Source: Escherichia phage EC_OE_11
Sequence record: OQ108497.1
Strand: one strand, 5' to 3'
Length of the DNA stretch: 64,000 bases
Under the pieces are notes generated by a model, which did not search any database, was not told where the DNA came from, and saw nothing but the letters and a program-made list of their open reading frames with translations. The position numbers and the translations under genes were made by a program. Shown here piece after piece: positions 15,013 to 35,085 of the stretch; the first letter of the stretch is position 1; every line of letters begins with the position of its first letter.

Positions 15013-17592
15013 CTAGTGACAACTGGCCCATGAGTTACCAACATCGTAACCAGCAGTGAGAGGTACATTAAGATTGTAATACTCACCAGCTTTATTAACA
15101 GCGATAGATGCTAATTCTCCAGCACGACTGTAGGCTGTAAACCAACCACCTTTTGGAGACTCATGTACGTTAGCCCAAATCTTGCCAGTACGTTTCTCTT
15201 CCTCTTCTTTCCAGGCATTAACTTTATCCAAACATTCTTTATCAATTTTCTTTTGTTCATCTGGATCATCAACTTGAGTCCAACCTAAAGATTCTTTAGA
15301 GAACCATTTAAAATGCACCAGATCACGAGTTACTTCAAGCTGTGCTTCATCGTGATATGCAATCATTTGTTGAACGAACGACTTATTTTTCCAGTCATCA
15401 ACAAAAAAGTCAACAGCTAATCCTTCTTCTTCGATAAGATCGTCGTAGATAACCATTGCTCTTTTTGCACAAATAACACCACCACTCTGAAACAGAGAGT
15501 TAAGTATTGCGTGTGCAGATCGTGTAGGTACTTTCCTACCATCAATACCAAGAATGTATTTCTTACCTGTTTTAACCCAAAAATCATGCAGACGTTCTTT
15601 AAGAAGAGCAAGAGGTTTTGCAGCTTCCCAGAAAGCATCGTATACAAGCTGTCCTGTATACATATCACTACCAATGGTTTTTGCTACTTTTGCAGCTTGA
15701 GCACCATAAGTAATACCATACTTAACAGATTTAGCAGGGCTTCGTTCAAACTTACGACCAATAGTATCAGAAATACGTCGAGCCATCATTGTATGAACAT
15801 CGTTAGGTTTTTCCAACAACAGAGCATTACAATATTCGTGTGGTTCCTGCTCGTACCGCCAACAGTAGTGTGATTCTATTTTTGCCTCAAGAGAATCAAA
15901 GTCATAACCAATTTGGAAGTATTTTGGAACTTCTACACCAAATAAGTTACGCATTTCATATCCGTACAGAGATGTTACACGTGGGATATTTGCTACTAAC
16001 CTGTGTTTCATACGAGACGTAGCTGCATCACACGTTGCAGCAGGAGTTGGTATACGACCATCAGCCCTTACTGCCGCCAGATAACCTTTATCATAATCCT
16101 CTTCATCTTCTTCCCAATCAGCACCACCACCTAGAATAGAGTTTCTACGATGTTTATACGTAAGATACTGCACAATCTGCGTAGCATAAGGAAACTTTTC
16201 ACCTAGTGCTTCCAAGTTAGGACAAATATCCTTCTCTTGCCCTTTTGTAAAGGAAGGGTTAGTAAGCACTTTAACACCACGACCTTTAGCTTTAGCAATA
16301 CGATCTCTTAGTTTCCATTCCAAAGTTTCTGGGGTGCACTCCAGATGATCACATCTGTCCTGGCAGAAGTTAGATGCTAATGTTTGATCAACATAGTCAC
16401 GAATAGCTTTCTCCATTTGTGCTTCATCTTTCTTAATCTTAGTGCCAGATTTAAGAGTGATATCTTTATCTTTATATTCAGATGGACTCCAACCTAAACC
16501 AACTAACCAATTTTTAATATGTGTAGTGTCGTCTAAAGTAGCAGGTACTGTAGGATCACAAATAGGTTCTTCTGCTGGAATAGGGAGTTTAAACTCTTTA
16601 CCTAATGCAAATAACCACCAACCATCTTCTTTTTGTACAAGTTCACCAGAATGTTTCTCTGCAAACTTTATCATGTTACTTGAAGGTTCACCATTCTTTT
16701 TAAACTGTAGTTTAGGTGGAATGAATGATTTCAAATAACCTTTAGTAGCAGGTTTAGGAGGTAGTACAGGTTCTGCCTCTAAACGACATGCTTCCATTCG
16801 AGCATCCAGATCACGAATATTATCTTCTGCTTGTTTCATATTGAAAGCAAAGCCACGGTGCTCTTGACGTGTAATAATATCAGCTACACGTTGTTCTAAG
16901 TTAAATGGTTCAGACCACTTACTATAATCGCCCCACTCTTCCATCAAATAACGGAACACTGCGGTGTTAGCTTTGTTATCGTAAATACAGTAATACAGCA
17001 TATCTGCTGCAAATGTTCTAAATCTTTCAGTTTCAGGGATGTTTTTTCTGAAATCAATTTTAACATCCCCTCCAGCTTTCTTAGATAACTCTGCCAGACT
17101 ATGACCACCGAAGCGATCAGGGTTTAGTGTCTTACTTAAGATCATAGTATCACAAATTTCAATGTTACTATTACCCCAAGTATTGTACTTAACACTGTAG
17201 TTGAGTTTAAAAAATAATTTAATTGCCAGTAAGTCGAAGTTAATGATGTTGTGTCCAACTACTTTGGTAATTTTATAGTTTGAATTACCTTTAAATTTAC
17301 CTGTTCCATTTACAAAATCAGGAAAATCTTTAAGAGGGAAATGGGTATATTCTAAATGCTCATATTCCTCCAGTCGGTATTCATACTTTCCGTCAGTCTC
17401 AACATACGGACGACCATCGAAAAGATATTTATCACCATCATGGAAAGCAATAATCTCTCCAGTATCATGACTTTCGCACACAATACAGTGCATTGCAAAA
17501 CTATCTTTTAAACGATATGGACTTGCCAAGTAATCTACACTTTCGTCATTAAGCAAGTTGTTACTTTCAATGTCGAAAGTAAAAGCTCCCAT
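15013..17592 (-). CDS. DNA polymerase, family A, with 3-5 exonuclease domain
   Basis: 859 aa; Exo I-like FTFDIESNN at N-terminus; motif B-like KSVKYGITYG; motif C-like IAYHDEAQLEV. Confidence 0.85.
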   Translation of the reverse strand: MGAFTFDIESNNLLNDESVDYLASPYRLKDSFAMHCIVCESHDTGEIIAFHDGDKYLFDGRPYVETDGKYEYRLEEYEHLEYTHFPLKDFPDFVNGTGKFKGNSNYKITKVVGHNIINFDLLAIKLFFKLNYSVKYNTWGNSNIEICDTMILSKTLNPDRFGGHSLAELSKKAGGDVKIDFRKNIPETERFRTFAADMLYYCIYDNKANTAVFRYLMEEWGDYSKWSEPFNLEQRVADIITRQEHRGFAFNMKQAEDNIRDLDARMEACRLEAEPVLPPKPATKGYLKSFIPPKLQFKKNGEPSSNMIKFAEKHSGELVQKEDGWWLFALGKEFKLPIPAEEPICDPTVPATLDDTTHIKNWLVGLGWSPSEYKDKDITLKSGTKIKKDEAQMEKAIRDYVDQTLASNFCQDRCDHLECTPETLEWKLRDRIAKAKGRGVKVLTNPSFTKGQEKDICPNLEALGEKFPYATQIVQYLTYKHRRNSILGGGADWEEDEEDYDKGYLAAVRADGRIPTPAATCDAATSRMKHRLVANIPRVTSLYGYEMRNLFGVEVPKYFQIGYDFDSLEAKIESHYCWRYEQEPHEYCNALLLEKPNDVHTMMARRISDTIGRKFERSPAKSVKYGITYGAQAAKVAKTIGSDMYTGQLVYDAFWEAAKPLALLKERLHDFWVKTGKKYILGIDGRKVPTRSAHAILNSLFQSGGVICAKRAMVIYDDLIEEEGLAVDFFVDDWKNKSFVQQMIAYHDEAQLEVTRDLVHFKWFSKESLGWTQVDDPDEQKKIDKECLDKVNAWKEEEEKRTGKIWANVHESPKGGWFTAYSRAGELASIAVNKAGEYYNLNVPLTAGYDVGNSWASCH

Positions 17593-18087: not shown

Positions 18088-19860
18088 TTAATAAGAACCA
18101 GCAGGAATATTCTCTGGGTTACTTGTGTATTGATCGTAATCGTGAAGTGTAGCTGTTTTAATCTCATAGAAGAAACTACCTGCTGCACCAGTCTCTGAGA
18201 ACTCACGATTCTTTAGAATGTAGCAATATGTGCGGTTACGTTCCATAGGATCTTCAGCTTGTTTATCACGCTCCAGCGCAATTGTGATACCAGCACCTTT
18301 AGCAAGGAAGCTACTACCCATTGCATCATCTTCTACAATATGTTCATTGCTATTGTTAGAAGACTTTTTAACGTGTGAAATTACAACAATGGTGATTGCG
18401 TACTCTTTCATAATGCGTTTGAGCCACGTCGCAAGTTCCTCTTGTTGTGACACGTCCATACCAGAAAGCAAGTCAGAATAAGGGTCGATAACAAGAATGG
18501 TTACTCCGAAATAAATAATCATTTCCAGAACCTTCTCTTTAATCACATCTACGTTAGCTCCACGATCATCACAAACATAGAAACGTGGTGTTCCATCTTC
18601 TCGTTCGTAAAAATCACGAATCTTTTCTTCATTATCTTTTAAAATCTTTTCCTTCTCTTCTTTCGTTTTACGGTGAAGAGGGATATGCAAGAATGAAGAC
18701 AGTAAGTTACGAGAATACTTCTTATACGTTGCCTCCAAAGATAAAATACCAAGAGTATGTTCTGGGTGTGCAAGAATAATGTGCTTCGTAATCTCGTTAA
18801 CCAACAGTGTCTTACCGATACTTGTTTTTGCAAGTATAACAGTAATTTCTTCTTCTACCAAGCCTCCACCTAACATATTAGAAGCAACACGCATGAATGG
18901 AGGAAGGGTGATCATTTTAGCTTCCAGGCATTCCAGGGCTGCTTCGTACAGTACGTTAGAAGCATAAACACCAGCAGGTGTGTACAGTTTAGCTTTGAAA
19001 AAGCGATCAATAAAGTGATCAATTTTTCCTTCTACTAACGCTTGGTTAGGATCTTTAACATCCGTTAGTTCCATCACGTAAACTTTATTACGTGGTAAGA
19101 TTTTAACACATTTCTCAACTGCTGCACGTCCAGCTTCATCATTGTCCATACATAGAACAATCTTTTTAAATTGATCTAAGAATTTATAACGATGTTGAAG
19201 CTGCTTATGCAGAGATGTTTCGCCACAAGTACCAGATACTACAGCAGGAACAGGATATTTACCACCCTTGTTATAATCTTTTAGCATCTGTGTTGCAGCC
19301 AGCATATCGTGTTCACCACCAACGATTAGAATAGTACCGCTGTGGTTACGATATTTAAACTCCCCAAAAAGATCACAATCCTTTCCTGTTTCACCGATAG
19401 GATGCGAAAAATCTTTTGGATCGATACGTTGTTTATACCCAGCAATATTGTAATCTTTAGTTGTAGGGTATAGTGTTGAAATTACTTCGCCAGTAGCTTC
19501 ATCGTACATATAGCGTACACCGAAAGGCTTAGAGATATCTTCACGAATACCACGATAACCTTTTGGATTAGTTCCAGTGCTGGCTTTTAGCTTATCATGC
19601 ACTTCTGGATTAAACTCACTACCCAAGATATCCTCCTCTTCAATTTCTTCGCCGTGTGCATTTAACCATTTTTGATCAGGGATAGTAAAGCCACAAGAAA
19701 AACAATGTGCGCCTCGATGGTCTTCATCGGCATCTAAGCCATATACCATTAAATTGTTTTGTGATCGATCACGTCCTCCTTTCATACAACGAGGACACCC
19801 AGTATGTCCTTCTTGACTTAGATCAATGTTATACCCATATTTATTTACAACATAAGACAC
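18088..19860 (-). CDS. bifunctional DNA primase/helicase (T7 gp4-like)
   Basis: 590 aa; N-terminal zinc ribbon (CPRC ... CFSCG), TOPRIM acidic motif (CMDNDEAGR), C-terminal DnaB-like helicase with Walker A (AKTSIGKT) and Walker B (LVIDPYSDL). Confidence 0.85.
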   Translation of the reverse strand: MSYVVNKYGYNIDLSQEGHTGCPRCMKGGRDRSQNNLMVYGLDADEDHRGAHCFSCGFTIPDQKWLNAHGEEIEEEDILGSEFNPEVHDKLKASTGTNPKGYRGIREDISKPFGVRYMYDEATGEVISTLYPTTKDYNIAGYKQRIDPKDFSHPIGETGKDCDLFGEFKYRNHSGTILIVGGEHDMLAATQMLKDYNKGGKYPVPAVVSGTCGETSLHKQLQHRYKFLDQFKKIVLCMDNDEAGRAAVEKCVKILPRNKVYVMELTDVKDPNQALVEGKIDHFIDRFFKAKLYTPAGVYASNVLYEAALECLEAKMITLPPFMRVASNMLGGGLVEEEITVILAKTSIGKTLLVNEITKHIILAHPEHTLGILSLEATYKKYSRNLLSSFLHIPLHRKTKEEKEKILKDNEEKIRDFYEREDGTPRFYVCDDRGANVDVIKEKVLEMIIYFGVTILVIDPYSDLLSGMDVSQQEELATWLKRIMKEYAITIVVISHVKKSSNNSNEHIVEDDAMGSSFLAKGAGITIALERDKQAEDPMERNRTYCYILKNREFSETGAAGSFFYEIKTATLHDYDQYTSNPENIPAGSY

Positions 19861-19872
19861 ATGATTCTCCTA

Positions 19873-20142
19873 CTAAAATGATTCGTTTGTCTCCATAATA
19901 TATTGCATTTCCAAATCTTCCATATGTTTCTTAAATTGGTAAACAATTTCCGATGGGGAAATATCTATATCAAAAAGTTCTTTTGTACCAGAATAAAACC
20001 TAATACCATCAACAATAAGACCACCATAATAATCCCAATCACTTTCTCGTGAGAAAGGATTAGGTTCTTCATAATAGTAATCTACTTCAACAATAATAGG
20101 TTCTTTATTATCTTGTTTATACTCAAAATCAAAAGTGTTCAT
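19873..20142 (-). CDS. hypothetical acidic protein
   Basis: 89 aa ORF. Confidence 0.3.
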   Translation of the reverse strand: MNTFDFEYKQDNKEPIIVEVDYYYEEPNPFSRESDWDYYGGLIVDGIRFYSGTKELFDIDISPSEIVYQFKKHMEDLEMQYIMETNESF

Positions 20143-21086
20143 TATAAATCCTCGATAAGCAGTCTGCGGGTTTCATTTAAATCATCAATATTGTAGTTAT
20201 CTCTTACATACTTAGCAAGAGCCAATCCTTTCTCAATACAAACATCAGGAGATTCGATTAAGTATTCTACAATATCTTTCCACTCTTTAACTGAATCAGC
20301 AAAGAAGATTAGATCTTTAAACTCTTCAGTATAATAGTTCTCTCGTGGTGAACAAACGAGTGGCAAACCTTTAGCACCAGCTTCAAGAATTTTTAAATTA
20401 CTTTTGGCATTATTAAAATGATTATTTACTAATGGAGCTATGGAGATTTGATGACCATCGTATGCTTCCATATAGCACTCATAAGGACGAATACCTTCGT
20501 AAACACAATCTGGTTGAATATCTTCTTTAATTTGCAACCATTGAGCACTACTTAACTCTTCATGATCTCTACGAAATCCACATAAAGTTAAATCTTTACC
20601 AAAACTAGGAAGAATAGCTAAATCATGTTTATGTGTTTCACTTCCCGCCCAAACCAGTGGACTTTTAGAATAACGATCTTTCGTAAGAACAAACTGTCCT
20701 TCATCAAAAGGTAGTCCATTAGGCACAATATGTACATTATCATTGTATTGGCTTAATTCAACCTTTAATGCTGGAGTTGTTGTAGTTACAAGATCGCTTC
20801 TTTCAAGGAACCATTTTAGATCATCTCGGATTTGATTTTCAAATAATCCTTCAAGCATATGTCCTTCAGGAATAATTAAAGAATCATCCAAATCCATTAC
20901 CAATTTAAACCCAAGTTGTTTAAGAGCCAGGAAACCTGGCTTTCCACGGGTTGGTACTCCATTGAACACAAAAATATTATGCTTAGGATTAATGGTCAGT
21001 TTGCGTTTATATGGCAAAATGATTCTATGAAAATCACATACACTATACTTTTCATTTCCGCGTGTGTCAAGAATAATATTAGGCAT
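20142..21086 (-). CDS. glycosyltransferase-like protein (GT-B-like), paralog A
   Basis: 314 aa; C-terminal KILEAGAKGLPLVCSP resembles the GT1 donor-binding motif; paralogous to adjacent gene. Confidence 0.4.
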   Translation of the reverse strand: MPNIILDTRGNEKYSVCDFHRIILPYKRKLTINPKHNIFVFNGVPTRGKPGFLALKQLGFKLVMDLDDSLIIPEGHMLEGLFENQIRDDLKWFLERSDLVTTTTPALKVELSQYNDNVHIVPNGLPFDEGQFVLTKDRYSKSPLVWAGSETHKHDLAILPSFGKDLTLCGFRRDHEELSSAQWLQIKEDIQPDCVYEGIRPYECYMEAYDGHQISIAPLVNNHFNNAKSNLKILEAGAKGLPLVCSPRENYYTEEFKDLIFFADSVKEWKDIVEYLIESPDVCIEKGLALAKYVRDNYNIDDLNETRRLLIEDL

Positions 21087-21097
21087 ATCGCTCCTTA

Positions 21098-22072
21098 TTA
21101 AAGACTTTCAATAACTTGACGACGCAGTTCATTGGCATCTGCAAGATTATAATTAAGACGAACGTGTTCTGCAAGCATCATACCACGATCTTCTGTGTAT
21201 CTAGGGTTTCTCATTAGCTTAACAACTTCATAATGCCAAGATGCTTTAGAGTCTGCATAGATAACAGCCTTTGCATCTACCGGATTGAAGTACGGCAGCA
21301 CAGGAGAACAGATAATAGGAAGACCCTTTGCACCTGCTTCCAAAATCTTCAAATTGCTTTTACAATTGTTGAAGTCGTTATCTACCAGAGGAGCAATTGC
21401 AATACTGTGACCGTCATACACAGACATATACTCACCTAAATTTTTAATAGCTGGTTTATACTGTGCATTTGGAATTTTACGTTTTACTTTAACCCACTCC
21501 GCAGTAGTTAGATACTGACTATTATTTCCAACAGGTGCAGAAGGATACACTTCATACCCTGCAATTGTCAATAGTGTATCATCAAATGTATTAGCTACAA
21601 GAGATAAATCAGGCTCATGGCTTGCTCCTCCAGCCCAAATAATAGGTGTGTCAGAATAACGGTCTTTTGTCAAAGTAAATTGACCTTCGTCGTAAGGTAG
21701 TGCGTTTCTAATAACGACAACATTACGATTTAAATGACGAATTTTGTAAGCTAGGTATTCTGTTGTTACTGTAACAACATCTGCTAACTTAACCATCTCT
21801 ACAATAGTCTTTGAATGATTAGTAAATACGCCAGCCATATAATGTTCAGGATTAAGTGAATAAAAGTCATCTAAATCAACAATAATCTTAACACCTTGTG
21901 CCTTCAGGCGTTTAACTTCGTCTGCCCCATGAGAATACACTCTATTAAAAACTAAAACGTCTTTCTTAGGTTTAAACGTATTTCCAGCAAATGGCATTAC
22001 AATACGATGGTAATCACAACCACTGCCTAACTTATTATCACACTTAAGTACAGGAGTATTAGGATTTACCAT
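21098..22072 (-). CDS. glycosyltransferase-like protein (GT-B-like), paralog B
   Basis: Start moved to ATG at 22072 (MVNPNT) behind GAGGAGG RBS (ORF track extends to 22111); aligns with paralog A including KILEAGAKGLPIICSP. Confidence 0.4.
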   Translation of the reverse strand: MVNPNTPVLKCDNKLGSGCDYHRIVMPFAGNTFKPKKDVLVFNRVYSHGADEVKRLKAQGVKIIVDLDDFYSLNPEHYMAGVFTNHSKTIVEMVKLADVVTVTTEYLAYKIRHLNRNVVVIRNALPYDEGQFTLTKDRYSDTPIIWAGGASHEPDLSLVANTFDDTLLTIAGYEVYPSAPVGNNSQYLTTAEWVKVKRKIPNAQYKPAIKNLGEYMSVYDGHSIAIAPLVDNDFNNCKSNLKILEAGAKGLPIICSPVLPYFNPVDAKAVIYADSKASWHYEVVKLMRNPRYTEDRGMMLAEHVRLNYNLADANELRRQVIESL

Positions 22073-22745
22073 ATTTTTGAGCCTCCTCATAAGAGATAAA
22101 AGTTTTACCATTGCGAAGATCCTCCAGTGATTGTTTATATTGTTCCCAGTTTACACCAATCCCCTGTTCTTTCTCTTCTTTTGACAGATTCGCAAAAGGT
22201 AAAGGATTGTCTCCAAACACATCGTCAGGATGGATAAACGCCATAATTCGAATAGGACATGGTACGCCTGGAATACCTCGGTTCAAACCTGCCAGCGGAA
22301 CGCGCTGAATCCACTCTGCATCTTCATACCCATAACCGTGGGTGTATGAGCGGAAATAGCCAGCTTTCTCAATAACTGCACGGGAATACATACCAAACTG
22401 GCACATCCCTAGTTCCCAAATAACCACTTCTCCTTCAATACCTTTTACTTTATCTTTAAAGTATTCAGGCATACCAAAGAAATCCCAACCATTTTCTTTT
22501 GCCTGTTTTACAAAATATGTTTCCCAACCTGGAACAACAGGATAACAATCATCATCAAAAATAAACCAGTAGTCATACCCTTCATCATAAAACTTTTTCA
22601 TCAGTTCATTACGGGCATATGCAACACCTTTTCGTTCCCGATCATACTGCACAACAAAAGTAGCATTAGGATCAGTCACAAGATAATCTTTAAGAGGACG
22701 CTTACCTACAGTAATAACACCAACACCGATTTTTGTATTTTCCAA
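22059..22745 (-). CDS. putative GT-A-like glycosyltransferase (DxD motif)
   Basis: 228 aa; WFIFDDDCYP resembles the GT-A DxD motif; low certainty. Confidence 0.3.
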   Translation of the reverse strand: MENTKIGVGVITVGKRPLKDYLVTDPNATFVVQYDRERKGVAYARNELMKKFYDEGYDYWFIFDDDCYPVVPGWETYFVKQAKENGWDFFGMPEYFKDKVKGIEGEVVIWELGMCQFGMYSRAVIEKAGYFRSYTHGYGYEDAEWIQRVPLAGLNRGIPGVPCPIRIMAFIHPDDVFGDNPLPFANLSKEEKEQGIGVNWEQYKQSLEDLRNGKTFISYEEAQKYGKS

Positions 22746-22754
22746 AATAACTCC

Positions 22755-23318
22755 TTAAATAATTTTATTCATGTCTTGACAATGTAAAAGGTGTGAAACA
22801 GCTTTCCTAGGATCATCACTACCTAAACGGTATGTGTGAAATAAATATAACCCACGTAATAAACCTAGCCTTTTGTTGTTAGCATGTAATGCTTTAGAGA
22901 AAATTATATCAAATTGTATTGACCTTTCCTCAAAAGGGATTTCATTCCACAGGCTCTTACGAAAGAGAAGAAAGAATCCTGCTAAGATAGCATCTGTAGG
23001 TACTTCCTCTATTGAGTTTCCCCATTCTAGATGTGCTCTTTTTGCAATTTCAATGTGGTGTAATATATTTGGATCTTCACTTCTTTCATTATTAAATAAT
23101 TGATATGTTGATCCCAGTCTATTACAAGATGCACCAAGAACATCAAAATCAGGATTTGAACGGACTATTGATTCCAACCAAGCAGGTTGTTCTGGAAGAA
23201 GAAACATTGTATCAATGTCTCTTAGGCAAATCCAACTATCTTCTGGTAAGACACTTATTGTGTCATTGATACCTTTTCCAATATCTCCAGAAAGATAGGG
23301 AGTTATGTGAAATATCAT
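22755..23318 (-). CDS. hypothetical protein (possible glycosyltransferase-associated)
   Basis: 187 aa; ICLRDIDTMF motif; same operon as GT-like genes. Confidence 0.25.
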   Translation of the reverse strand: MIFHITPYLSGDIGKGINDTISVLPEDSWICLRDIDTMFLLPEQPAWLESIVRSNPDFDVLGASCNRLGSTYQLFNNERSEDPNILHHIEIAKRAHLEWGNSIEEVPTDAILAGFFLLFRKSLWNEIPFEERSIQFDIIFSKALHANNKRLGLLRGLYLFHTYRLGSDDPRKAVSHLLHCQDMNKII

Positions 23319-23375
23319 ACTCCCTCCGTATTATTACTTTAGCATTTTTAGACTAAAAAGTCCAAATGGTTTTAC

Positions 23376-23570
23376 CTATTGATTACGTTTTGCGAGTTCC
23401 ATTTGGATAGCTAAACTGTGATCTCGTGCTTCCATATACTCTTTATATGTTTCATTAAGATGATCACGACAAACATCACGCAGTTTAATCAGTTTATCTG
23501 TAGGGATACCACTAAGATCATCCCAAGACTTTACAACTTCACCAGTATCATTGATCCCAATGGTTTTCAT
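23376..23570 (-). CDS. hypothetical protein
   Basis: 64 aa ORF. Confidence 0.25.
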   Translation of the reverse strand: MKTIGINDTGEVVKSWDDLSGIPTDKLIKLRDVCRDHLNETYKEYMEARDHSLAIQMELAKRNQ

Positions 23571-23826
23571 CTACAACCTCCTTAATTGCTACAGCACAGT
23601 TTTTGCAGATACACTGCCCTTTACCTTTAGAAATCTGGATGTAAGGTTCATTTTCATTTTCGCCCTTACGTGAGTCATATATTACAGAATTGAAGCACAC
23701 AACGCAAATATTTTTTAAGATTGTATACTTATCAACTTTCTTTTTTGTTTTAAAGTTAACTTCAATAACATCAGCCATCAGTGTAACACTCCCAGTATGT
23801 TGTTTTGTGACATAACCATAGAACAT
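23548..23826 (-). CDS. hypothetical Cys-rich (zinc-ribbon-like) protein
   Basis: 92 aa; CVVC ... CICKNC cysteine pairs. Confidence 0.3.
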   Translation of the reverse strand: MFYGYVTKQHTGSVTLMADVIEVNFKTKKKVDKYTILKNICVVCFNSVIYDSRKGENENEPYIQISKGKGQCICKNCAVAIKEVVDENHWDQ

Positions 23827-24066: not shown

Positions 24067-24576
24067 TTAGCGATAGAATTGATGTTCTTTGTAGCGGTAC
24101 ACTAGAACCATATCTTTTTCCCAGTGTGCTTTTATTGTAGATTTTTTAAAGTATAATGCGCCTTTTGTAATATCTAATGCAATTCGTAATTCTGGAAAAT
24201 GGTTATCGAGATAAAGTAGACGTTCTGCTATAGCCTTAGCTTCCTTCCACTTATCGTGTTCCATAACATTGAATGTCTTCGTGTAAGAGAATTGTCCTTT
24301 TTGAAACAAAACTTCTTTTATAGTATCAGGGAAATATGAATCTCTCGCCCTATTCAATACTACATTACCAACAGCAGACATACCGCGCTTTCCTTGATTA
24401 CGACTTTCTGCATAGATTGCACAAGCTAATAGATTTTCTTTACTATCACGCTTTGTACACTTGTGAACTACTTTAGCAGTTTTTACGTTTGCAGCTTCGG
24501 CTTGCGCCACAACAGGTGTAAATGTAAAAGCAGTTAAGGATAGTAACGCAATTGCGACAAAGGTTTTTATTGACAA
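24067..24576 (-). CDS. SleB/CwlJ-like cell wall hydrolase with signal peptide
   Basis: 169 aa; N-terminal signal peptide (AIALLSLTAFTFTPVVAQA); LACAIYAESRNQGKRGMSAVGNVVLNRA resembles the Hydrolase_2 (SleB) core. Confidence 0.5.
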   Translation of the reverse strand: MSIKTFVAIALLSLTAFTFTPVVAQAEAANVKTAKVVHKCTKRDSKENLLACAIYAESRNQGKRGMSAVGNVVLNRARDSYFPDTIKEVLFQKGQFSYTKTFNVMEHDKWKEAKAIAERLLYLDNHFPELRIALDITKGALYFKKSTIKAHWEKDMVLVYRYKEHQFYR

Positions 24577-25335: not shown

Positions 25336-25932
25336 TTACTCGAACCAATCGTCGCCAGCGCCAAACGCTTTAACTACATCGTAAATGTCAAGCCCAGCTT
25401 TACCTACACCATATGCTTTCAGTTTCCATTCGCTATCTTCTCGCACCAGGGAGGCAACGTGGCAAATGGTGTTACCTGCAAGTTCTGGAGCCAAGAAGTC
25501 AAAGTCCAGCAGTTCAACATTACGTTCATCATCGAAGATTTTAAGGAAACCTTCGGTAGCGTGACCAAGGCGTTTCTTACCCGTTTCGTCATCAATAGTA
25601 ATTACGAATGCAATTTCCTGTGCTTCAGCAGAGATATTATCCAGTGTAACATCAATCTGCTCCATTTGTCCTACACCGTCACGAACATCTTCACCTGCAA
25701 AAGTAGAACGTTCAGGATCAAATTTCTGCGCGTAGCATACCAGGTGGCGAGGAGACAACAGTTCCGGCAGACCAGATGCGTTGTGTCGGCAAATCAGAGC
25801 ACTAACATCCAGATCCAGTTTTTCGTTAGATTTCCAAGAGAATTCCAGACGAATGCGTTTCAGTGCTGGTGCGATCTTTTTCAGAGAAACTTTTTCGCTA
25901 GAACCTTTTTTCAGGGAAATTTTCTGAGTCAT
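25336..25932 (-). CDS. TerD-domain protein (tellurium resistance TerD family)
   Basis: 198 aa, typical TerD size; N-terminal KISLKKG ... VSLKK; acidic Ca-binding-like segment FAGEDVRDGVGQMEQIDV; next to vWA, TelA-like and TerC-like genes. Confidence 0.6.
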   Translation of the reverse strand: MTQKISLKKGSSEKVSLKKIAPALKRIRLEFSWKSNEKLDLDVSALICRHNASGLPELLSPRHLVCYAQKFDPERSTFAGEDVRDGVGQMEQIDVTLDNISAEAQEIAFVITIDDETGKKRLGHATEGFLKIFDDERNVELLDFDFLAPELAGNTICHVASLVREDSEWKLKAYGVGKAGLDIYDVVKAFGAGDDWFE

Positions 25933-26004
25933 AATTTATTATCTCCTTTGTTGTTAATTTACGTTGTCTATTTTACTAATCTTTTCTACAAAGTCAAGCG
26001 TTTT

Positions 26005-26799
26005 TTACGCTTTTGCTCCAAATTTTTTAACCCACTCGCCAAACTCTTCGGATAACAGTTTATCGTAAAGTTCTTCATCAGACAAGGACAAATCTGCAAT
26101 ACCGATAAAATCAACATTATCGTACTCTTTTGCCAAGTCTTTCAGGAATTTAAAGTTTGCATTACCTACACCAACCATAAACCAGTAAACAGGTGTATTG
26201 CGGTGTTTGTTCAGCAAGCTACGTACTGCTGAAGTATCCATGTTCTCCCCGTCAGTTTGGAAGAAAATCATTGCAGGAGTACGATCAACTTGTGCATTAG
26301 TATCTACAACCTGTTCTACAACAGTACGTGTAACTTGTACAAGTTCTTTTTTACCAGTTAGTTTAGCAAGGAAACCTTTAGCCGGAACTTCTTCATACTC
26401 AACGACTTCGCGTGTAATATTTTTCATAGGTACACTGCCGAAGTATGTATCATAAATCTCTTGCATTACTGGAGCATAAGCTGTACCACCGTTGATGCAA
26501 ACATTAGACATGCAAGAGCCGACATAATCATCATACACATCAGCCGTTGCAGGAGGCAGTTCAAAAGAAGAACTATTGAAAGCCCACATGTCAATCTGTG
26601 CATTATCATCAAACTTCATACCAAACGGCAGCAGTTTACCTACAAAATCACTAACAGTGCCATCACGATACAGTTCACACATACTGCCCGAAATATCTAA
26701 GGCGCTACCGACACGAAGAACAACATCGTTAATCTTTTTCTTACGCAGAGATACAGTAAGAGTTTCTTGACGTTTTTTAAGACTGATTTTATTGGACAT
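26005..26799 (-). CDS. von Willebrand factor A (vWA) domain protein, TerY-like
   Basis: 264 aa; MIDAS motif LDISGSM; vWA-size domain; adjacent to TerD-like gene. Confidence 0.6.
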   Translation of the reverse strand: MSNKISLKKRQETLTVSLRKKKINDVVLRVGSALDISGSMCELYRDGTVSDFVGKLLPFGMKFDDNAQIDMWAFNSSSFELPPATADVYDDYVGSCMSNVCINGGTAYAPVMQEIYDTYFGSVPMKNITREVVEYEEVPAKGFLAKLTGKKELVQVTRTVVEQVVDTNAQVDRTPAMIFFQTDGENMDTSAVRSLLNKHRNTPVYWFMVGVGNANFKFLKDLAKEYDNVDFIGIADLSLSDEELYDKLLSEEFGEWVKKFGAKA

Positions 26800-26800
26800 A

Positions 26801-27070
26801 TTATTTCTCCTTTCTGAGTGTAATGTTAGTAACTTCTAAATCCACTTCTACTACTTCTGTATCATATAAAATACAGTTAAGTTGACCTCTTTGTGAACCA
26901 TTCAGACACATTGCTTGGTTTGTATTAACCTTAATAAACACTAAGTTTCTGAACGTATCTAAACCAGCATCTTGATAGGCAACATAATATACGAATGTAT
27001 CACCTGCGTCAAGTTCTCCAAAAGATTTAGGTTCATCTGATTTGTCGTCTTTGATATTAAATTTAAGCAC
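26801..27070 (-). CDS. hypothetical protein
   Basis: 89 aa ORF, 1 nt after vWA gene start. Confidence 0.3.
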   Translation of the reverse strand: MLKFNIKDDKSDEPKSFGELDAGDTFVYYVAYQDAGLDTFRNLVFIKVNTNQAMCLNGSQRGQLNCILYDTEVVEVDLEVTNITLRKEK

Positions 27071-27626
27071 TGTCTTCTCCTTTACCTGCTCTCAAGCCTA
27101 AATAGAAAGCCTCTCTGGTGATCTTTTGCAACTCGTTTAAAGAGATAGTTACAACTAAATCATCTTCAATTTCTAGCCTTGAGTCTTCTTCTGTCTCAAT
27201 GCAAGTATTATGCACTTTGTGGTAAGGATTGTCAACACGTTTAAATTTATTATTTTCAGTGCTGAAGAAGCAATCTGGATCTTCTTCTCCATCACCCCAG
27301 CCCTGGTTAGGGTCTTCTTCAGATCTTTCTGTTGGGATCTCACCTGTAAAGTGCTCTTCTAATACCAGAGCAATACCATCCCCAAGATCGGAAGAGAACA
27401 TCAAATTACAAACTTCTTCCCAAGGCATAGACCACTTGAATCTTTTACGATTGCCATGTTTATCTTCTTCGTTAGAGAAAACACCACCATAGCTATCATA
27501 ATTGCCATACATCTCTTCAACAACTTTACCACCTTTCAAAAGAAATAGGTAGCAAGGAGAGCCATCGAAAGAGGTAGAAAGAGCAGCATTACCAGACTCT
27601 TTGCACAAGAAACTAAAGCACCCCAT
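27063..27626 (-). CDS. hypothetical acidic protein
   Basis: 187 aa ORF. Confidence 0.3.
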   Translation of the reverse strand: MGCFSFLCKESGNAALSTSFDGSPCYLFLLKGGKVVEEMYGNYDSYGGVFSNEEDKHGNRKRFKWSMPWEEVCNLMFSSDLGDGIALVLEEHFTGEIPTERSEEDPNQGWGDGEEDPDCFFSTENNKFKRVDNPYHKVHNTCIETEEDSRLEIEDDLVVTISLNELQKITREAFYLGLRAGKGEDSA

Positions 27627-27826
27627 TATACACCAGCCTTAAGATCAATTAAAGCCAAAGTTGTTTCAGAATGTGTTTGCTCGTCTACAGGTGCAGTCAT
27701 ATGATAATACAAAAAGTCTTCGGCATCATACCAATCTGACTCTTGACCTTGTTTCCAACCATCAATGAAAGCATCTTCCATGATGGTTTGTAACTCTTCA
27801 CGAGTTAAGTGAATATCTTTACTCAT
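27626..27826 (-). CDS. hypothetical protein
   Basis: 66 aa ORF, translationally coupled. Confidence 0.25.
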   Translation of the reverse strand: MSKDIHLTREELQTIMEDAFIDGWKQGQESDWYDAEDFLYYHMTAPVDEQTHSETTLALIDLKAGV

Positions 27827-28059
27827 TACACATTCTCCTCTTTTACCAATTCCATCGTTGAACTATCAAAACCATCTTTAGAAGAATAGGTATAGACAGG
27901 ACGTAGTTCTCGCAGGACAGTGAATACATTAGGATCATCTAACCAAGCATCCTGGAGGAGAACATAACGATCTTCATTGTCGTACTGGACAGCAATCATA
28001 GAACCAGACAGTTTGTAAATTTTAATATTCATAATATATTTCTCCTTAAAGTAGACCAC
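27826..28059 (-). CDS. hypothetical protein
   Basis: 77 aa ORF, translationally coupled. Confidence 0.25.
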   Translation of the reverse strand: MVYFKEKYIMNIKIYKLSGSMIAVQYDNEDRYVLLQDAWLDDPNVFTVLRELRPVYTYSSKDGFDSSTMELVKEENV

Positions 28060-29149
28060 GTTTAACAGTTTGAATCATACCATCTTCAAGAGATTGTACT
28101 TCTTGGATGTAATCAATACGAGCAGCACGGGCTTCAGTGTTGATTCGGTTAGTTTCTTCCAACATTTTAACTAAGTTTTCTTGATCGCGACGTAGTGTTT
28201 CAATATCCAATACTTGACGATTAGCAAGTTGTGTAGCTTCAATTTGGTTTTGTGCAGCCAGATCACTACCCATTGCAATAGCAGCATTAAATTCATTCAG
28301 TACATTGTTCTGTGTATCGGCTGCTTTCTTCTGGCGTAGACTTTCAATATACATAGAAAAGTTTGCAGAGTAAGCAGGGATAACATTATTCACAATGTTA
28401 CGTGCTGATCGCATCAAACTTGCAGATACTTTCTGCATACTTTGTACACGTGGCCCCATCTGAACACACAGTAAACGCAAGGCTTTCAGGTCTGCAATAC
28501 GAATTTCAAGCAGATCCATAGTATCACGAGTACGTTGACGCTCTTCTACTTCATTTTCAGGTAGAGTATTAAGGCGAACTTCTTCTTTTTCATAAGTAGC
28601 TGTTAGAAGCTCTATATCCCTGTTTAAGCTAAGAGCATATTTTGCAATAGCCTCTTCTAAACGTTGCAGATATCGTAAAGAATCTTCTTCTTTTTTCAAG
28701 TCTGTTTGGAGTGTCTTTACCAAACCTTCAATACGATTATTGATGGTGTCAAACTCTCCAAACAAATCTTCTTTCATACCTAACACTTTCTTAACTAGCT
28801 TACCTAAACCTTTAGATTGTTTAATAGAATTAGGATCAAGTTGCTTTGCTTGCTTAATAAGTGCAGTTAAACGTTCACTCATTTCATCTCCCTGGGATGA
28901 ACGCTGGTGTTTAAGCACTTCAGCATTAAGGTTACGAAGAGTAAGTCCTGCATCAGCACCAACTTGTTCAATCTCTTCACGAGACATTGGAGGCAGCATT
29001 TGTACAGGTCGTGCAACAGCAGGTGCATATACAGGGCTTGCATCCATAGCACTTGGAGCAAACAAAGACTTACTCTTTTCTGTTGTTGCCGTGAATACAC
29101 TCATTTCAGACGGTTTGCTTTTTACGGCACTGATAAAAGGACTGGACAT
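28046..29149 (-). CDS. TelA-like (toxic anion resistance/KlaB-like) protein
   Basis: 367 aa, mostly helical/coiled-coil, size and composition like the TelA family; within TerD/TerC neighbourhood. Assigned by context and composition, not alignment. Confidence 0.4.
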   Translation of the reverse strand: MSSPFISAVKSKPSEMSVFTATTEKSKSLFAPSAMDASPVYAPAVARPVQMLPPMSREEIEQVGADAGLTLRNLNAEVLKHQRSSQGDEMSERLTALIKQAKQLDPNSIKQSKGLGKLVKKVLGMKEDLFGEFDTINNRIEGLVKTLQTDLKKEEDSLRYLQRLEEAIAKYALSLNRDIELLTATYEKEEVRLNTLPENEVEERQRTRDTMDLLEIRIADLKALRLLCVQMGPRVQSMQKVSASLMRSARNIVNNVIPAYSANFSMYIESLRQKKAADTQNNVLNEFNAAIAMGSDLAAQNQIEATQLANRQVLDIETLRRDQENLVKMLEETNRINTEARAARIDYIQEVQSLEDGMIQTVKRGLL

Positions 29150-29217
29150 TCAATTTCCTCCATATTCTTTAGTAGATGGTGATACCTCTGTACCACCATC
29201 ATAACACAAATTAAGTA

Positions 29218-30069
29218 TTAAACAAACATATCTAAATAATTTGTAGTAATAAATGCTCCATCTGCTTCCAGATTAACATAACCAGTAGCATTAGTGGTTA
29301 AGAAATCCAGATCGAAGGACTCTTTAACACCCCGTACCTCAACACGAGAGATATCGAATACAGGTAGTGTAACAGCCTCTTCGTGCAATACCGTACCTTT
29401 GTAGGTTGCCTTAATGATAAACTTGATATTACCCGTTCCAGCATCATACAAAACACTTTCAAACCCTTTGAGAGTATATTTATCACCAGAAGTGAAGTGC
29501 AAAGTTGCTTTGTTTACAGTACGTTTTTTACGAGGAGTTCCTTTCACACGTTTATGATCACTACGTTTTTTGTATTTAGGAATGAATACAAACGATACAC
29601 TCTCAAGAAAGGTATCAACATCAAGGATTTTAATATCCTCTGTTGCAGCAAATTTTGAAGTCGTTGCATCAAAATGCTTTCCCCTGCGATCATACATAAA
29701 GATATCAAACCGATCTTCTAAATCAAACAAATTATGTATCTTAATTTCAGAATGCTTGCACATTGCAGCAACCTTAAACTCTTCAAAACGTGGGTGTTCT
29801 ACCAGTTCTTCAAGTTTTACACCAAAGACAGTATATGGTTTCGAAGTTTTTTCTGGTGTTGGCATTACAGAAGCATAATCACCGATTGCGCTCTTAAAGC
29901 AAAATTGTTCTTGACCTGTATTTTTACCAACGAATTTACAGTATTCGTCATCGTGCATGCTTTCCTTGGTAGTACCAACAAACTCAAAACCATCTTTATT
30001 CTTCTCAAGAATTTCTTGATTAAAGATCCAACCTTCCAGGCGATACACTTTACCAACTTCTAGTTTCAT
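29218..30069 (-). CDS. hypothetical protein
   Basis: 283 aa ORF between TelA-like and lipoprotein genes. Confidence 0.3.
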   Translation of the reverse strand: MKLEVGKVYRLEGWIFNQEILEKNKDGFEFVGTTKESMHDDEYCKFVGKNTGQEQFCFKSAIGDYASVMPTPEKTSKPYTVFGVKLEELVEHPRFEEFKVAAMCKHSEIKIHNLFDLEDRFDIFMYDRRGKHFDATTSKFAATEDIKILDVDTFLESVSFVFIPKYKKRSDHKRVKGTPRKKRTVNKATLHFTSGDKYTLKGFESVLYDAGTGNIKFIIKATYKGTVLHEEAVTLPVFDISRVEVRGVKESFDLDFLTTNATGYVNLEADGAFITTNYLDMFV

Positions 30070-30104
30070 CTGTTTCTCCTTCTTGTTTAATCTGTATTAA
30101 ATTA

Positions 30105-30695
30105 TTAACGACGACGTGAGCTACTAAAACTACGTTTCGACGAAGAATAACTTTTCGAAGACTTACTATAAGAGCTAATAGGACTTGAGTAAGACTTACG
30201 AGCAGAGTAATCACTATTCACTTTTGTTGTTGATGGGCGTGAATACGTTTGTACACTTTGCTGCTTAATTGTGTTTTGTTTAGTGGTTGTATATGTATTT
30301 ACAGGTTTATCATAAAAACTACGCTTTTGTGTTGTATATGATTTACTGTTAGTTGTAGGAGCAGCATTGTTATTAATAATGGTTGTATTGCTACCACCAT
30401 CTCTATAACCACCACCGCCACTATTACCACTCAACATATGACCAAGAAGCATACCTGTAGCAAATTCACCTACACCAGAAGAACTACTACCGCCTCCTTG
30501 CACAACAACTGTTGAAGGTTGTGCAGGTGCTGCTTGAACAACTTGAGGTGCAGGTTGATTTACATATTGTTCATCTACCATCTGATTTGGTGTTTGTTGG
30601 TAACGTTGATTTTGTACATTTTCAGAATCATCACAACCTACCAGCAATACACTACCTAATACAACTGCAACAATAAAAGATTTAATGTTTTTCAT
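30105..30695 (-). CDS. lipoprotein with Ser/Gln/Tyr-rich low-complexity region
   Basis: Start set at ATG 30695 behind GAGAGGG RBS; signal peptide plus lipobox (SVLLVGC); long Q/S/Y/T-rich tail. Confidence 0.45.
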   Translation of the reverse strand: MKNIKSFIVAVVLGSVLLVGCDDSENVQNQRYQQTPNQMVDEQYVNQPAPQVVQAAPAQPSTVVVQGGGSSSSGVGEFATGMLLGHMLSGNSGGGGYRDGGSNTTIINNNAAPTTNSKSYTTQKRSFYDKPVNTYTTTKQNTIKQQSVQTYSRPSTTKVNSDYSARKSYSSPISSYSKSSKSYSSSKRSFSSSRRR

Positions 30696-30888
30696 TTGTA
30701 ACCCTCTCATTTAAAGTCTCAACACAATTTTTAAAATCCCTAGAGAAACAATACATCTGTTCTCCGTTCCTGTTGATAGTAATTGTATGATTATCAATGT
30801 ATGTTGTCAAGATAAAAATCAAACAAAATAACCCTAAAGCAAAACAAATATTTTCAAACAGAATCCAAAGAACACGTAAAACCACCAT
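30682..30888 (-). CDS. small membrane protein
   Basis: 68 aa with hydrophobic FALGLFCLIFILTTYI segment. Confidence 0.3.
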   Translation of the reverse strand: MVVLRVLWILFENICFALGLFCLIFILTTYIDNHTITINRNGEQMYCFSRDFKNCVETLNERVTNEKH

Positions 30889-30904
30889 CAGATCACCTCA
30901 ACAA

Positions 30905-30922
30905 AGCCCCCGAAGGGGCTTA
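30905..30922 (-). terminator. GC hairpin downstream of TerC-like gene
   Basis: AGCCCC-CGAA-GGGGCT stem-loop. Confidence 0.4.
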
Positions 30923-30927
30923 ATGAA

Positions 30928-31905
30928 TTAAGCAACAGCCTGGTCTTCTTTTTCAGGGAAGATTAAACTTGCAATGACACCCAGCCCCAGAGTACCTAAC
31001 ACAATATACATACTGATCGTCGGATCAATGTGTGCTGGCAGGAAACTCACTTTTGCGTGCAGAGTTTCTGCAAACGGGTGATACATCAGTTTTACACCCA
31101 CAAATACCAGGACTACGATAACTGCTTTCTCCAGATGAACCAAATATTTCAGTGCAACACTAAGGACAAAGAACAGAGCACGTAGACCTAAAATTGCACA
31201 CAGCATTGAAGAAAATACAAGCAGAGGTTCTTGTGTCACTGCAATTACTGCTGGAACAGAGTCTACTGCAAAGATTACGTCAACCATTTCCATTACAAAC
31301 ACACAAACCAGAGCCGGAGTTGCTACACGAACACCATTTTTGATTGTGAAGAACTTCTCACCATCCATCTGATCAGATACAGGGAACAGCTTACGAACAA
31401 TGCGAGTAGCCCAGTGTTTAGAGTAATCAACTTCTGCGTCATTATCTCCAGCGAATACCATTTTAGCTGCACAGAAAAGGATGACCGCACCGAAGAAGAT
31501 ATTAACATACCAGCCCAAACTCAACAAATAAGTGCCTACTGCTACAAACACACCTCGGAAGACAATCGCACCTGCAATACCCCAAAGTAGAATCTTGTGT
31601 TGCAAGTGTGTGCTTTTAATACCAAAACTTGCGAATACTGCCACAAATACTACTAAGTTATCTACAGAAAGAGATTTCTCCAACACATATCCACTCAAGA
31701 ACAAGCTCGCAAAATCAGCACCGTGCTGGAAGTATACAAAACCATAGTAGGCTAATGATACCCCAATCCAGAAAATTGACCAACCAATTGCAGATTTAAA
31801 TGAAATTTCTTTGTTTTCTCTGTGTCCAAAGAAATCAATACAAATCGACAACACTAAAATACCCACTAAAACAACCACATCAATAATTGGGAAACCCAGT
31901 TGCAT
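30928..31905 (-). CDS. TerC-family integral membrane protein
   Basis: 325 aa, multiple TM helices; duplicated TerC signature (LEKSLSVDNLVVF and EMVDVIFAVDSVPAVIAVT). Confidence 0.7.
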   Translation of the reverse strand: MQLGFPIIDVVVLVGILVLSICIDFFGHRENKEISFKSAIGWSIFWIGVSLAYYGFVYFQHGADFASLFLSGYVLEKSLSVDNLVVFVAVFASFGIKSTHLQHKILLWGIAGAIVFRGVFVAVGTYLLSLGWYVNIFFGAVILFCAAKMVFAGDNDAEVDYSKHWATRIVRKLFPVSDQMDGEKFFTIKNGVRVATPALVCVFVMEMVDVIFAVDSVPAVIAVTQEPLLVFSSMLCAILGLRALFFVLSVALKYLVHLEKAVIVVLVFVGVKLMYHPFAETLHAKVSFLPAHIDPTISMYIVLGTLGLGVIASLIFPEKEDQAVA

Positions 31906-31982
31906 TCTTATCTCCTCTTTAATGCGGAGGACAATCCTCCGCTCTATGTCTTATACTATAAACTGTTTTTAAAGAAAGTCAA

Positions 31983-32231
31983 CTAGTTCAGTTCTGTAAT
32001 TTTAAGTTTATCTTCTTTGTTAATGATAGGGAAAGCTACAGCATCACCTACGTCATCAATAAAGCAAATAGCAAGACCACCTTCCACTTTACTAATCTGA
32101 CCCTTAAAGGCGCGATACGGGGCAGGAACTTTATCTCCATCTTCAAGGATAATAGCCTCGTAAACCTTGCCGATAGTACAATCACGAGTGTTTCTAAATT
32201 TTTCAAGCACTTCAACATTTACTTTACGCAT
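31983..32231 (-). CDS. hypothetical protein
   Basis: 82 aa ORF. Confidence 0.3.
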   Translation of the reverse strand: MRKVNVEVLEKFRNTRDCTIGKVYEAIILEDGDKVPAPYRAFKGQISKVEGGLAICFIDDVGDAVAFPIINKEDKLKITELN

Positions 32232-32246
32232 ATAAAAAATCCTCTC

Positions 32247-32453
32247 TTATTTGTTAGATTGAAAGATACCACGAAGTACCGCAAGAATGAACGTCACACA
32301 GACTACACTCCAAAACGTTACAGGAACATGATGCCAGTCTAAACCGATAATGTCAATCATATAGTTGTATGCTAAAAGCAGCAGCCAACTAGGGATTAAC
32401 ACAATCAAAAACACAACAATAAAACAACCTAATACTGCTAAAACACCTGCCAT
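32247..32453 (-). CDS. small membrane protein
   Basis: 68 aa, two hydrophobic helices. Confidence 0.3.
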   Translation of the reverse strand: MAGVLAVLGCFIVVFLIVLIPSWLLLLAYNYMIDIIGLDWHHVPVTFWSVVCVTFILAVLRGIFQSNK

Positions 32454-32462
32454 ACTTTCTCC

Positions 32463-34696: not shown

Positions 34697-34836
34697 AAGA
34701 ATATCATCTGCTTAATTTTATTGATCTCTTGATGTAGTAACTTTCCAGCATGTAATTGATCTTTAATATTGACAGCAAGAATTTCAAGCTCCGTCAGTTT
34801 TTCTTGGATAGCTTTATATTCATCATCTGTAAGCAT
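34681..34836 (-). CDS. hypothetical small protein
   Basis: 51 aa ORF (below ORF-track cutoff), AAGGGGAAGAAA upstream of ATG. Confidence 0.25.
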   Translation of the reverse strand: MLTDDEYKAIQEKLTELEILAVNIKDQLHAGKLLHQEINKIKQMIFFWTED

Positions 34837-34847
34837 TTTCTTCCCCT

Positions 34848-35051: not shown

Positions 35052-35058
35052 ATAAATA

Positions 35059-35080
35059 AAGGAGGCTTTCGCCTCCTTTT
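35059..35080 (-). terminator. rho-independent terminator-like hairpin after AAA ATPase gene
   Basis: AGGAGGC-TTTC-GCCTCCT, followed on minus strand by TTTATTTAT. Confidence 0.5.
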
Positions 35081-35085
35081 ATCAC

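Follow-up and report, generated by a model that had tools for sequence, protein, structure and literature searches.

Which molecule receives the sugar transferred by four consecutive glycosyltransferase genes that sit in the replication block of a lytic phage? We addressed this question in Escherichia phage EC_OE_11, using a 64,000-nucleotide stretch of its genome (OQ108497.1; hereafter the window) in which four back-to-back open reading frames (ORFs), with gaps or overlaps of a few bases, fill positions 20142-23318 on the minus strand. They encode two paralogs with a GT-B fold, a 228-aa enzyme with a GT-A fold and a 187-aa protein with a DxD motif. An earlier reading, made from the sequence alone, had proposed that these enzymes glycosylate modified DNA bases to evade restriction. 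Our analysis favours a different answer, to which we assign a probability of about 0.4: the four genes make up a glycan-building cassette, soluble and cytoplasmic, that acts on an acceptor other than DNA, most likely the structural proteins of the phage. The enzyme class itself is already in public records and is not new. Positions 19800-23600 of the window are 99.0% identical to Escherichia phage JohannJBalmer (Bas62, MZ501084; Justusliebigvirus, Stephanstirmvirinae), where the four genes are annotated as two 'putative disaccharide synthase' and two 'putative glycosyltransferase' genes, and the RefSeq phi92 genes 164 and 165 are labelled glycosyltransferases. We used Bas62 as the reference for parts of the genome outside the window (window coordinate equals Bas62 coordinate minus approximately 24,408). 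The same region is at least 95% identical in 55 phage records, and phi92-like E. coli phages make up almost the whole set. Four or five of the GenBank records that reach this level are named 'Campylobacter phage' with C. jejuni as host, among them MG065639.1 (A150), which is 98.7% identical at the protein level; these host labels are probably wrong.

The two GT-B genes are paralogous over their full length. Paralog 1 (20142-21086, minus strand) encodes a soluble 314-aa protein with an isoelectric point (pI) of 5.2, and paralog 2 (21098-22111, minus strand) encodes 337 aa from its first ATG. The start of paralog 2 is probably the third in-frame ATG, at 22072, which would yield 324 aa, because AGGAGG lies 9 nt upstream of this codon and homologues are mostly 322-324 aa long. 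The paralogs are 40% identical over 324 columns (BLASTP E 7e-82), carry CDFHRI and CDYHRI near their N-termini, and contain NLKILEAGAKGLPLVCSP and ...GLPIICSP, respectively, in their C-terminal halves. Both belong to PHROG 7162 'glycosyltransferase' (E 4e-145 for paralog 1 and 7e-149 for paralog 2), and all four proteins of the cluster match PHROG 'glycosyltransferase' families with E values of 1e-79 to 1e-149. Paralog 1 reaches 26.8 bits against Pfam Glyco_trans_1_2, above the curated cut-off of 25; paralog 2 scores 14.9 bits against the same cut-off, yet is an unambiguous paralog.

An AlphaFold2 model of paralog 1, built from a 42-sequence alignment (predicted local distance difference test score, pLDDT, 94.5), consists of two Rossmann-like halves of alternating beta-strands and alpha-helices. 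Foldseek comparison of this model with the Protein Data Bank (PDB) returned 269 matches at E ≤ 0.001, and the 50 best are nearly all GT-B glycosyltransferases. The closest are TreT, GlgM, SdgB, BshA, MshA and PglA (E 1e-9 to 1e-10, template modelling score ~0.6), and further neighbours include TarM, GtfC, Gtf3 and tetrahydrobiopterin glucosyltransferase. The predicted structure confirms paralog 1 as a GT-B fold enzyme, and its GT4-type fold neighbours act on very different acceptors; the 'disaccharide synthase' label in Bas62 probably just reflects the fold match to the trehalose synthase TreT. Paralog 2 is placed in the same class by paralogy, PHROG membership and family residues. In the family alignment H20 is nearly invariant and R21, D67, D68, K228, S229, K232 and E235 are invariant, and paralog 2 retains every invariant residue. 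The segment KILEAGAKG corresponds to the C-terminal nucleotide-sugar helix with the invariant glutamate (E235). CAZy family GT4 has an E-x7-E motif; here the first glutamate is replaced by Ala227 in paralog 1 and by cysteine in paralog 2, and the family motif reads K-S-x-x-K-x-x-E. Nearly all members of this small family are viral, and 5.8 billion proteins yield 57 clusters.

The third gene (22059-22745, minus strand, TTG start) encodes a 228-aa GT2-like glycosyltransferase assigned to PHROG 2456 (E 2.5e-79). The protein carries the sequence YWFIFDDDCYP, and R16, D64-D66, E141 and D142 are invariant in its family. A search of PDB sequences returned chance-level matches only, and the AlphaFold2 model (pLDDT 86.9) adopts a GT-A fold whose Foldseek matches in the PDB include STIV A197, TarP, COLGALT1, LH3 and RmlT; matches in BFVD include GT-A proteins of a megavirus, a pithovirus and a marseillevirus. 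On this model, the protein is confirmed as a GT-A fold enzyme with a DDD motif. Searching 1.84 billion representative sequences with the family profile recovered 1475 family representatives at E ≤ 1e-3. When 61 distant relatives were scanned against Pfam, 39 matched GT2, 26 matched Glyco_transf_7C and 10 matched TAGT, with all TAGT matches weak (best E 1.6e-5).

The fourth gene (22755-23318, minus strand) encodes a 187-aa protein that carries CLRDIDTMF and matches PHROG 14179 'glycosyltransferase' (E 1.5e-112) and PHROG 26101 (E 1.9e-23). Invariant positions in its family are D34-x-D36-T37, N66-R67, H161, Y163-R164 and H176. The protein has no match in Pfam or NCBIfam, and neither its sequence nor its family profile matches the PDB; alignment to the GT-A profile with hhalign brings the motifs into register at a probability of only 7.7%. 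It is probably a minimal GT-A-like transferase, a prediction drawn mainly from the PHROG label and the invariant DxD. NCBIfam yields no match for any of the four proteins, and none of them has a transmembrane segment. The sequence-only reading had anticipated much of this protein-level picture. The two adjacent paralogs and all N- and C-terminal motifs that it quoted are present, and its suggestion that the motifs resemble GT-B sites is borne out by the hidden Markov model, AlphaFold2 and Foldseek searches. Its length of about 324 aa for the second paralog fits the ATG at 22072, and the DxD-type FIFDDDC motif and the DID motif of the short protein both coincide with invariant aspartates.

The GT-A and GT-B genes travel together as a conserved module. 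In a census of 14 diverse viral contigs that encode a relative of the 228-aa enzyme, a GT-B homologue lies beside the GT-A gene in ten and a homologue of the 187-aa protein is present too in four. The GT-A enzyme is probably the core, initiating transferase, because it occurs without a GT-B partner in the remaining 4 of 14 loci and with one in 10 of 14. The pair is found in two genomic settings. In large lytic phages it adjoins the primase-helicase gene, as in relatives L006, L007 and L009, with tellurite resistance-like (Ter) genes and a SleB-like hydrolase close by. In temperate-type phages it is located beside terminase and portal genes, in stretches that also carry NinG or antiterminator Q. 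A scan of genome contigs recovered seven loci, four of which are near-identical Pseudomonas prophage loci, and the pair is present in lambdoid Pseudomonas prophages (L018-L021); in L019 it lies downstream of replication genes and NinG and directly upstream of terminase. In these prophages (for example, L019:6625-8924) a 213-aa protein with a Big_2 Ig-like domain directly precedes the pair, and phage metallopeptidase and terminase genes follow it; it is conceivable that this Ig-like protein is an acceptor or a virion decoration protein.

Genes for sugar-donor synthesis accompany these transferases. In Bas62, rmlA, rmlB, rmlC and rmlD lie at 113,945-117,205, outside the window, and all four enzymes score above NCBIfam equivalog cut-offs; as judged from these matches, the reference genome encodes a complete dTDP-L-rhamnose pathway. 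Some related loci carry other sugar-nucleotide enzymes beside the glycosyltransferases. L006 and L009 each have an epimerase/dehydratase; L010 has one too, accompanied by a radical-SAM enzyme and a DegT aminotransferase, and in L011 a hexapeptide-repeat protein adjoins a GT2 gene. Locus L008, positioned between terminase and portal, combines a homologue of the 187-aa protein with UDP-galactopyranose mutase, a polysaccharide deacetylase and two Methyltransf_24 genes. Such a variable pattern of sugar enzymes is typical of glycan-building gene sets.

In the model that we favour, the metal-dependent 228-aa GT-A enzyme would use its DDD motif to place the first sugar on an acceptor hydroxyl, and the two GT-B paralogs and the small DxD protein would extend or branch the resulting glycan. 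Donors would be host nucleotide sugars together with dTDP-L-rhamnose made by the phage rmlABCD enzymes, and the acceptor would be phage structural proteins, giving virion glycosylation of the mycobacteriophage kind. Structural proteins are the single most likely target, if only tentatively so, followed by envelope glycans, then DNA, then a small molecule. Several observations point in this direction. A tblastn search with the 228-aa protein against 50,697 phage genomes first recovered relatives in coliphages and Klebsiella phages, followed by 51 records from mycobacteriophages, and the mycobacteriophage matches listed are almost all phages of M. smegmatis. In phage Bobi (Cheoctovirus, cluster F), the match falls in the N-terminal domain of gp102, a 536-aa glycosyltransferase (tblastn E ~5e-7), and hhalign aligns gp102 to the wider 228-aa family profile with 100% probability. 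The gp102 gene is at the right genome end, in the locus to which Che8 gp108-110 belong, and adjoins a GT25-like gene that corresponds to Che8 gp110; capsid glycosylation is cited in two sources as requiring Che8 gp110 (PMC12363180; PMC11256854). Direct homology of the proteins described here to Che8 gp108, gp109 or gp110 was considered and rejected, with hhalign probabilities below 1%. Both of the non-prophage bacterial GT-B homologues examined are encoded beside autotransporters, one next to an inverse autotransporter in Burkholderia dolosa (L005) and one next to a pertactin-type autotransporter and three more glycosyltransferases (L016). Among the GT-B fold neighbours, SdgB, GtfC and Gtf3 are protein O-glycosyltransferases, and the position of the pair beside terminase in temperate-type phages, with NinG or antiterminator Q, would fit late expression.

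These pointers to protein glycosylation are weak and indirect, and several points weigh against structural proteins as the acceptor. The mycobacteriophage link is itself indirect, as the Che8 enzymes bear no specific similarity to any protein here, and the autotransporter association comes from two contigs only. The acceptor is not specified by fold, because the neighbours also include MshA, BshA, PglA, TarM and TarP, which are small-molecule, lipid-linked and teichoic-acid transferases. Here the genes belong to the replication block rather than the structural block, a terminase-side position in temperate-type phages would equally suit a late DNA modifier, and our literature search found no report of glycosylated phi92-type virions.

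The strongest rival, although still unlikely in our estimate, is remodelling of a host envelope glycan by the cassette at the cytoplasmic side of the membrane, with lipopolysaccharide (LPS) core, enterobacterial common antigen (ECA), the NGR glycan or another undecaprenyl-pyrophosphate-linked intermediate as substrate. Such remodelling could mask receptors, block superinfection or stop progeny from sticking to debris. It would agree with the presence of TarP, a prophage-encoded teichoic-acid glycosyltransferase, among the best GT-A fold matches and of TarM and PglA among the GT-B ones, with the use of surface glycans (NGR/ECA and LPS core) as receptors by this phage genus, and with rhamnose being a typical envelope-glycan sugar. 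One public record names a paralog 'RfaG', and the pair also occurs in temperate prophages, in which surface conversion is common. However, the cassette has no flippase, Gtr-type membrane partner or transmembrane segment, and the terminase-side position in temperate-type phages suggests that the genes are expressed late in lytic growth and not in the lysogen. A lytic phage, moreover, has little time for surface renewal, and no phenotype of this kind has been reported.

We consider it quite unlikely that phage DNA is the acceptor. Such a proposal is not new, as Olsen et al. (2020; PMC7552041) had already suggested, for the rhamnose genes, rhamnosylation of hydroxymethylated nucleotides; that speculation and the BASEL phenotypes are all that our literature search found on glycosylation or DNA modification in this genus, and it found no nucleoside analysis of phi92-like virion DNA. 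On the DNA hypothesis, the enzymes would act, perhaps with rhamnose, at sparse or sequence-specific sites or on a precursor made by an unrecognised enzyme, and the modification would protect against further defences. The sequence-only reading drew its case from gene position, and its description of that position holds: the ORF map and the location of the ribonucleotide reductase place the cluster between the primase-helicase and nucleotide-metabolism genes, adjoining the former, and this synteny is kept in lytic relatives. It was also right that the window has no thymidylate synthase or hydroxymethylase homologue. Its central claim of base glycosylation for anti-restriction fares less well, as gene content and published restriction–modification (RM) phenotypes speak against it.

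Inspection of the rest of the genome for base-modification enzymes, as that reading had suggested, used Pfam searches of 73 further reference-genome ORFs of about 110 aa or more, together with the Bas62 annotation. These searches and the annotation reveal no ThyA-type hydroxymethylase, TET/JBP enzyme or 2-oxoglutarate oxygenase, and only a ThyX-type thymidylate synthase. This 323-aa protein (L003:6762-7733, outside the window) matches Pfam Thy1 (E 3.9e-9) and scores 35.8 bits against an NCBIfam thyX cut-off of 87.9, and is predicted to be a divergent flavin-dependent enzyme. TET/5mYOX, C5-methyltransferase and ThyA-type partners are likewise missing from the reference genome and from the ORFs scanned in the lambdoid prophage L019, in which the pair is present with no base-modifying gene among those ORFs. 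No TET/5mYOX or ThyA-type family appears among the 25 most frequent of 72 neighbour families in the 14 viral loci. According to a study of phage 5-hydroxymethylcytosine (5hmC) glycosyltransferases, about 65% of glycosyltransferase contigs lack a nearby base-modifying gene (bioRxiv 10.1101/2023.12.21.572611), which would favour the DNA hypothesis.

The families of the T4 alpha- and beta-glucosyltransferases, to which the sequence-only reading had pointed as a check, have no Pfam match at E ≤ 1 to any of the four proteins, and the T4 enzymes are absent from the top 50 of the 269 Foldseek PDB matches of paralog 1. In the 228-aa enzyme we find the R...DDD...ED motifs reported for phage 5hmC glycosyltransferases and JGT, enzymes whose best PDB match is likewise TarP (bioRxiv 10.1101/2023.12.21.572611). 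Weak matches to Pfam TAGT (PF20691; E 6.8e-5) and to PHROG 842, beta-glucosyl-HMC-alpha-glucosyltransferase (E 5e-5), also occur. Yet the TAGT score of 23.3 bits falls below the cut-off of 27.5 and covers residues 16-75 only, and relatives are GT2-like, by the 39 to 10 ratio of GT2 to TAGT matches among the 61 scanned. The TAGT-type motifs, present and invariant in the 228-aa family, are weak evidence, as other GT-A families have similar ones. This reasoning does not by itself exclude DNA, because proven phage 5hmC glycosyltransferases have the same motif and the same TarP neighbour.

Published phenotypes argue against a modified genome. Phi92-like phages are 'exceptionally susceptible' to six RM systems despite a 'putative dTDP glycosylation machinery', unlike T-even phages (Maffei et al. 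2021, PMC8594841). Druantia III and ARMADA II protect against Bas61 and Bas62, and the authors think that both systems recognize unmodified DNA (PMC13463889). Three of the four enzymes, in addition, are acidic (pI 5.1-5.6), a further point against a DNA substrate. Bulk DNA is probably not the target. A narrower version, in which the cassette and the phage's own dTDP-L-rhamnose produce a rhamnose-containing glycan on DNA or its precursors without ThyA- or TET-type hydroxymethylation, sparse or sequence-specific and invisible to the six RM systems, strikes us as highly improbable.

Least of all do we expect the enzymes to glycosylate a small molecule, nucleotide or RNA (for example, a nucleoside-like product proposed for the Ter, phosphoribosyltransferase (PRTase) and HAD genes, or a host immune signal), which is very unlikely despite the small-molecule transferases MshA, BshA, TreT, GlgM and tetrahydrobiopterin glucosyltransferase among the GT-B fold neighbours, the 'disaccharide synthase' label chosen by the Bas62 annotators, the Ter-like set that lies 2-12 kb upstream in the same orientation and includes ComF-like PRTase, HAD, macro and NADAR genes, and the recurrence of Ter genes near the pair in related large phages, as the pair also occurs in small temperate-type contigs flanked by terminase, portal, NinG and Q rather than Ter genes, and four transferases exceed the need of simple conjugation.

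The genes around the cluster define its setting in the phage genome. The cluster is transcribed in the same direction as a downstream 89-aa acidic ORF, the primase-helicase gene (18088-19860) and the DNA polymerase gene (15013-17592), and the Ter-like gene set separates it from a class III ribonucleotide reductase (~36.7-38.6 kb). No convincing terminator interrupts the four genes; in our scans, promoter-like matches (41, compared with 34.2 ± 5.8) and terminator-like matches (5, compared with 5.1) are at chance level, and the transcription unit is not defined by them. The 89-aa ORF (19873-20142, minus strand, pI 4.1, PHROG 4240) lies between the GT-B gene and the primase-helicase gene, and ORFs of 83-85 aa occupy the equivalent position in the distant relatives L006, L007 and L009; it could be a replication accessory protein or a DNA mimic. 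On the other side of the cluster, positions 24067-24576 on the minus strand encode a 169-aa protein whose N-terminal segment resembles a signal peptide and which carries a cell-wall hydrolase domain of the SleB type (Pfam Hydrolase_2, E 4.5e-20). This protein is placed among early and replication genes and is distinct from the endolysin annotated elsewhere in Bas62, and three related viral loci likewise have a Hydrolase_2 protein close to the glycosyltransferase pair.

Positions 25336-36246 on the minus strand of this lytic phage hold the Ter-like ('tellurite resistance') genes. The set comprises TerD (25336-25932), a vWA-TerF-like protein (26005-26799), TelA (28046-29149), membrane TerC (30928-31905), the ComF-like PRTase (33172-34029) and an AAA protein (35086-36246), all on that strand. 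Macro and HAD domains are found among reference-genome ORFs, and the Bas62 annotation places them at approximately 32.5-33.2 kb and 34.0-34.7 kb of the window. TerD, TelA and vWA-TerF genes recur near the glycosyltransferase pair in related large phages. The reference annotation further includes an intein-containing UvrD/Rep helicase at ~40.9-43.6 kb on the minus strand (Bas62 65272-68046), together with a number of small proteins labelled 'aminoacyl-tRNA synthetase-like'. A sirtuin, NAMPT and PRPP synthetase, which it lists outside the window, resemble NAD+ salvage genes.

Phi92-like and Phapecoctavirus phages, which are therapy candidates, rank among the coliphages with the broadest host range; they devote about 3 kb to the four glycosyltransferases and about 3.3 kb more to the rhamnose pathway. 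If virion proteins are the target, phage self-glycosylation would extend from actinobacteriophages to enterobacterial phages; it could also be the first system for virion glycosylation in a phage with a Gram-negative host, a possibility that we regard as doubtful. Virion glycosylation shields mycobacteriophages from antibodies, and the same effect here, if true, would bear on immune clearance during therapy. A host-envelope target would instead make the cassette a new superinfection or receptor-masking device, and a DNA target would imply a new modification chemistry. For annotation, the lesson is that a place in a phage replication block does not by itself justify calling a glycosyltransferase DNA-modifying.

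The cassette can be compared with several known systems. With GT4-type GT-B enzymes (TreT, MshA, BshA, GlgM, PglA, SdgB, TarM and GtfC), the paralogs have in common the two-Rossmann-domain fold, a conserved glutamate in the C-terminal helix, solubility and a Pfam Glyco_trans_1_2 or 1_4 signal; unlike these enzymes, the phage proteins are only 12-17% identical to them, are shorter (314 aa compared with 370-500) and have the first motif glutamate replaced. Like the T4 alpha- and beta-glucosyltransferases, they are phage-encoded GT-B enzymes located among the DNA-metabolism genes of a lytic myophage. They differ from the T4 system in the lack of a family match and of a dCMP hydroxymethylase in the genome, and this phage type is RM-sensitive whereas T-even phages are resistant. 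The 228-aa enzyme resembles TET/5mYOX-associated phage DNA glycosyltransferases (Pfam TAGT; Pyle et al. preprint) and trypanosome JGT in its GT-A fold, R...DDD...ED motif and best PDB neighbour, TarP, and both TAGT-type enzymes and this cassette are often encoded beside secondary glycosyltransferases and sugar epimerases. By contrast with TAGT-type enzymes, it scores below the family cut-off, has GT2 and Glyco_transf_7C relatives and lacks a TET/5mYOX, C5-methyltransferase or ThyA-type partner.

Giant viruses encode their own sugar-nucleotide synthesis enzymes and glycosyltransferases, with which they build capsid and fibril glycans. As in those viruses, both a nucleotide-sugar pathway, rhamnose included, and several glycosyltransferases are encoded by the phage; giant viruses infect eukaryotes and use different enzymes, and the likeness is at the level of fold only. 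The mycobacteriophage virion glycosylation systems (Che8 gp108-110, Corndog and Myrna; Freeman et al. 2023, cited in PMC12363180 and PMC11256854) differ from the cassette in that the latter belongs to a phage of a Gram-negative host, includes GT-B enzymes and is accompanied by its own dTDP-rhamnose pathway. Like those systems, it would rely on several phage-encoded GT-A transferases acting together; a Methyltransf_24 domain is common to Che8 gp108 and the related viral cluster L008, and the 536-aa Cheoctovirus glycosyltransferase Bobi gp102, encoded at the same genomic locus as the Che8 system, falls within the broader family to which the 228-aa enzyme belongs.

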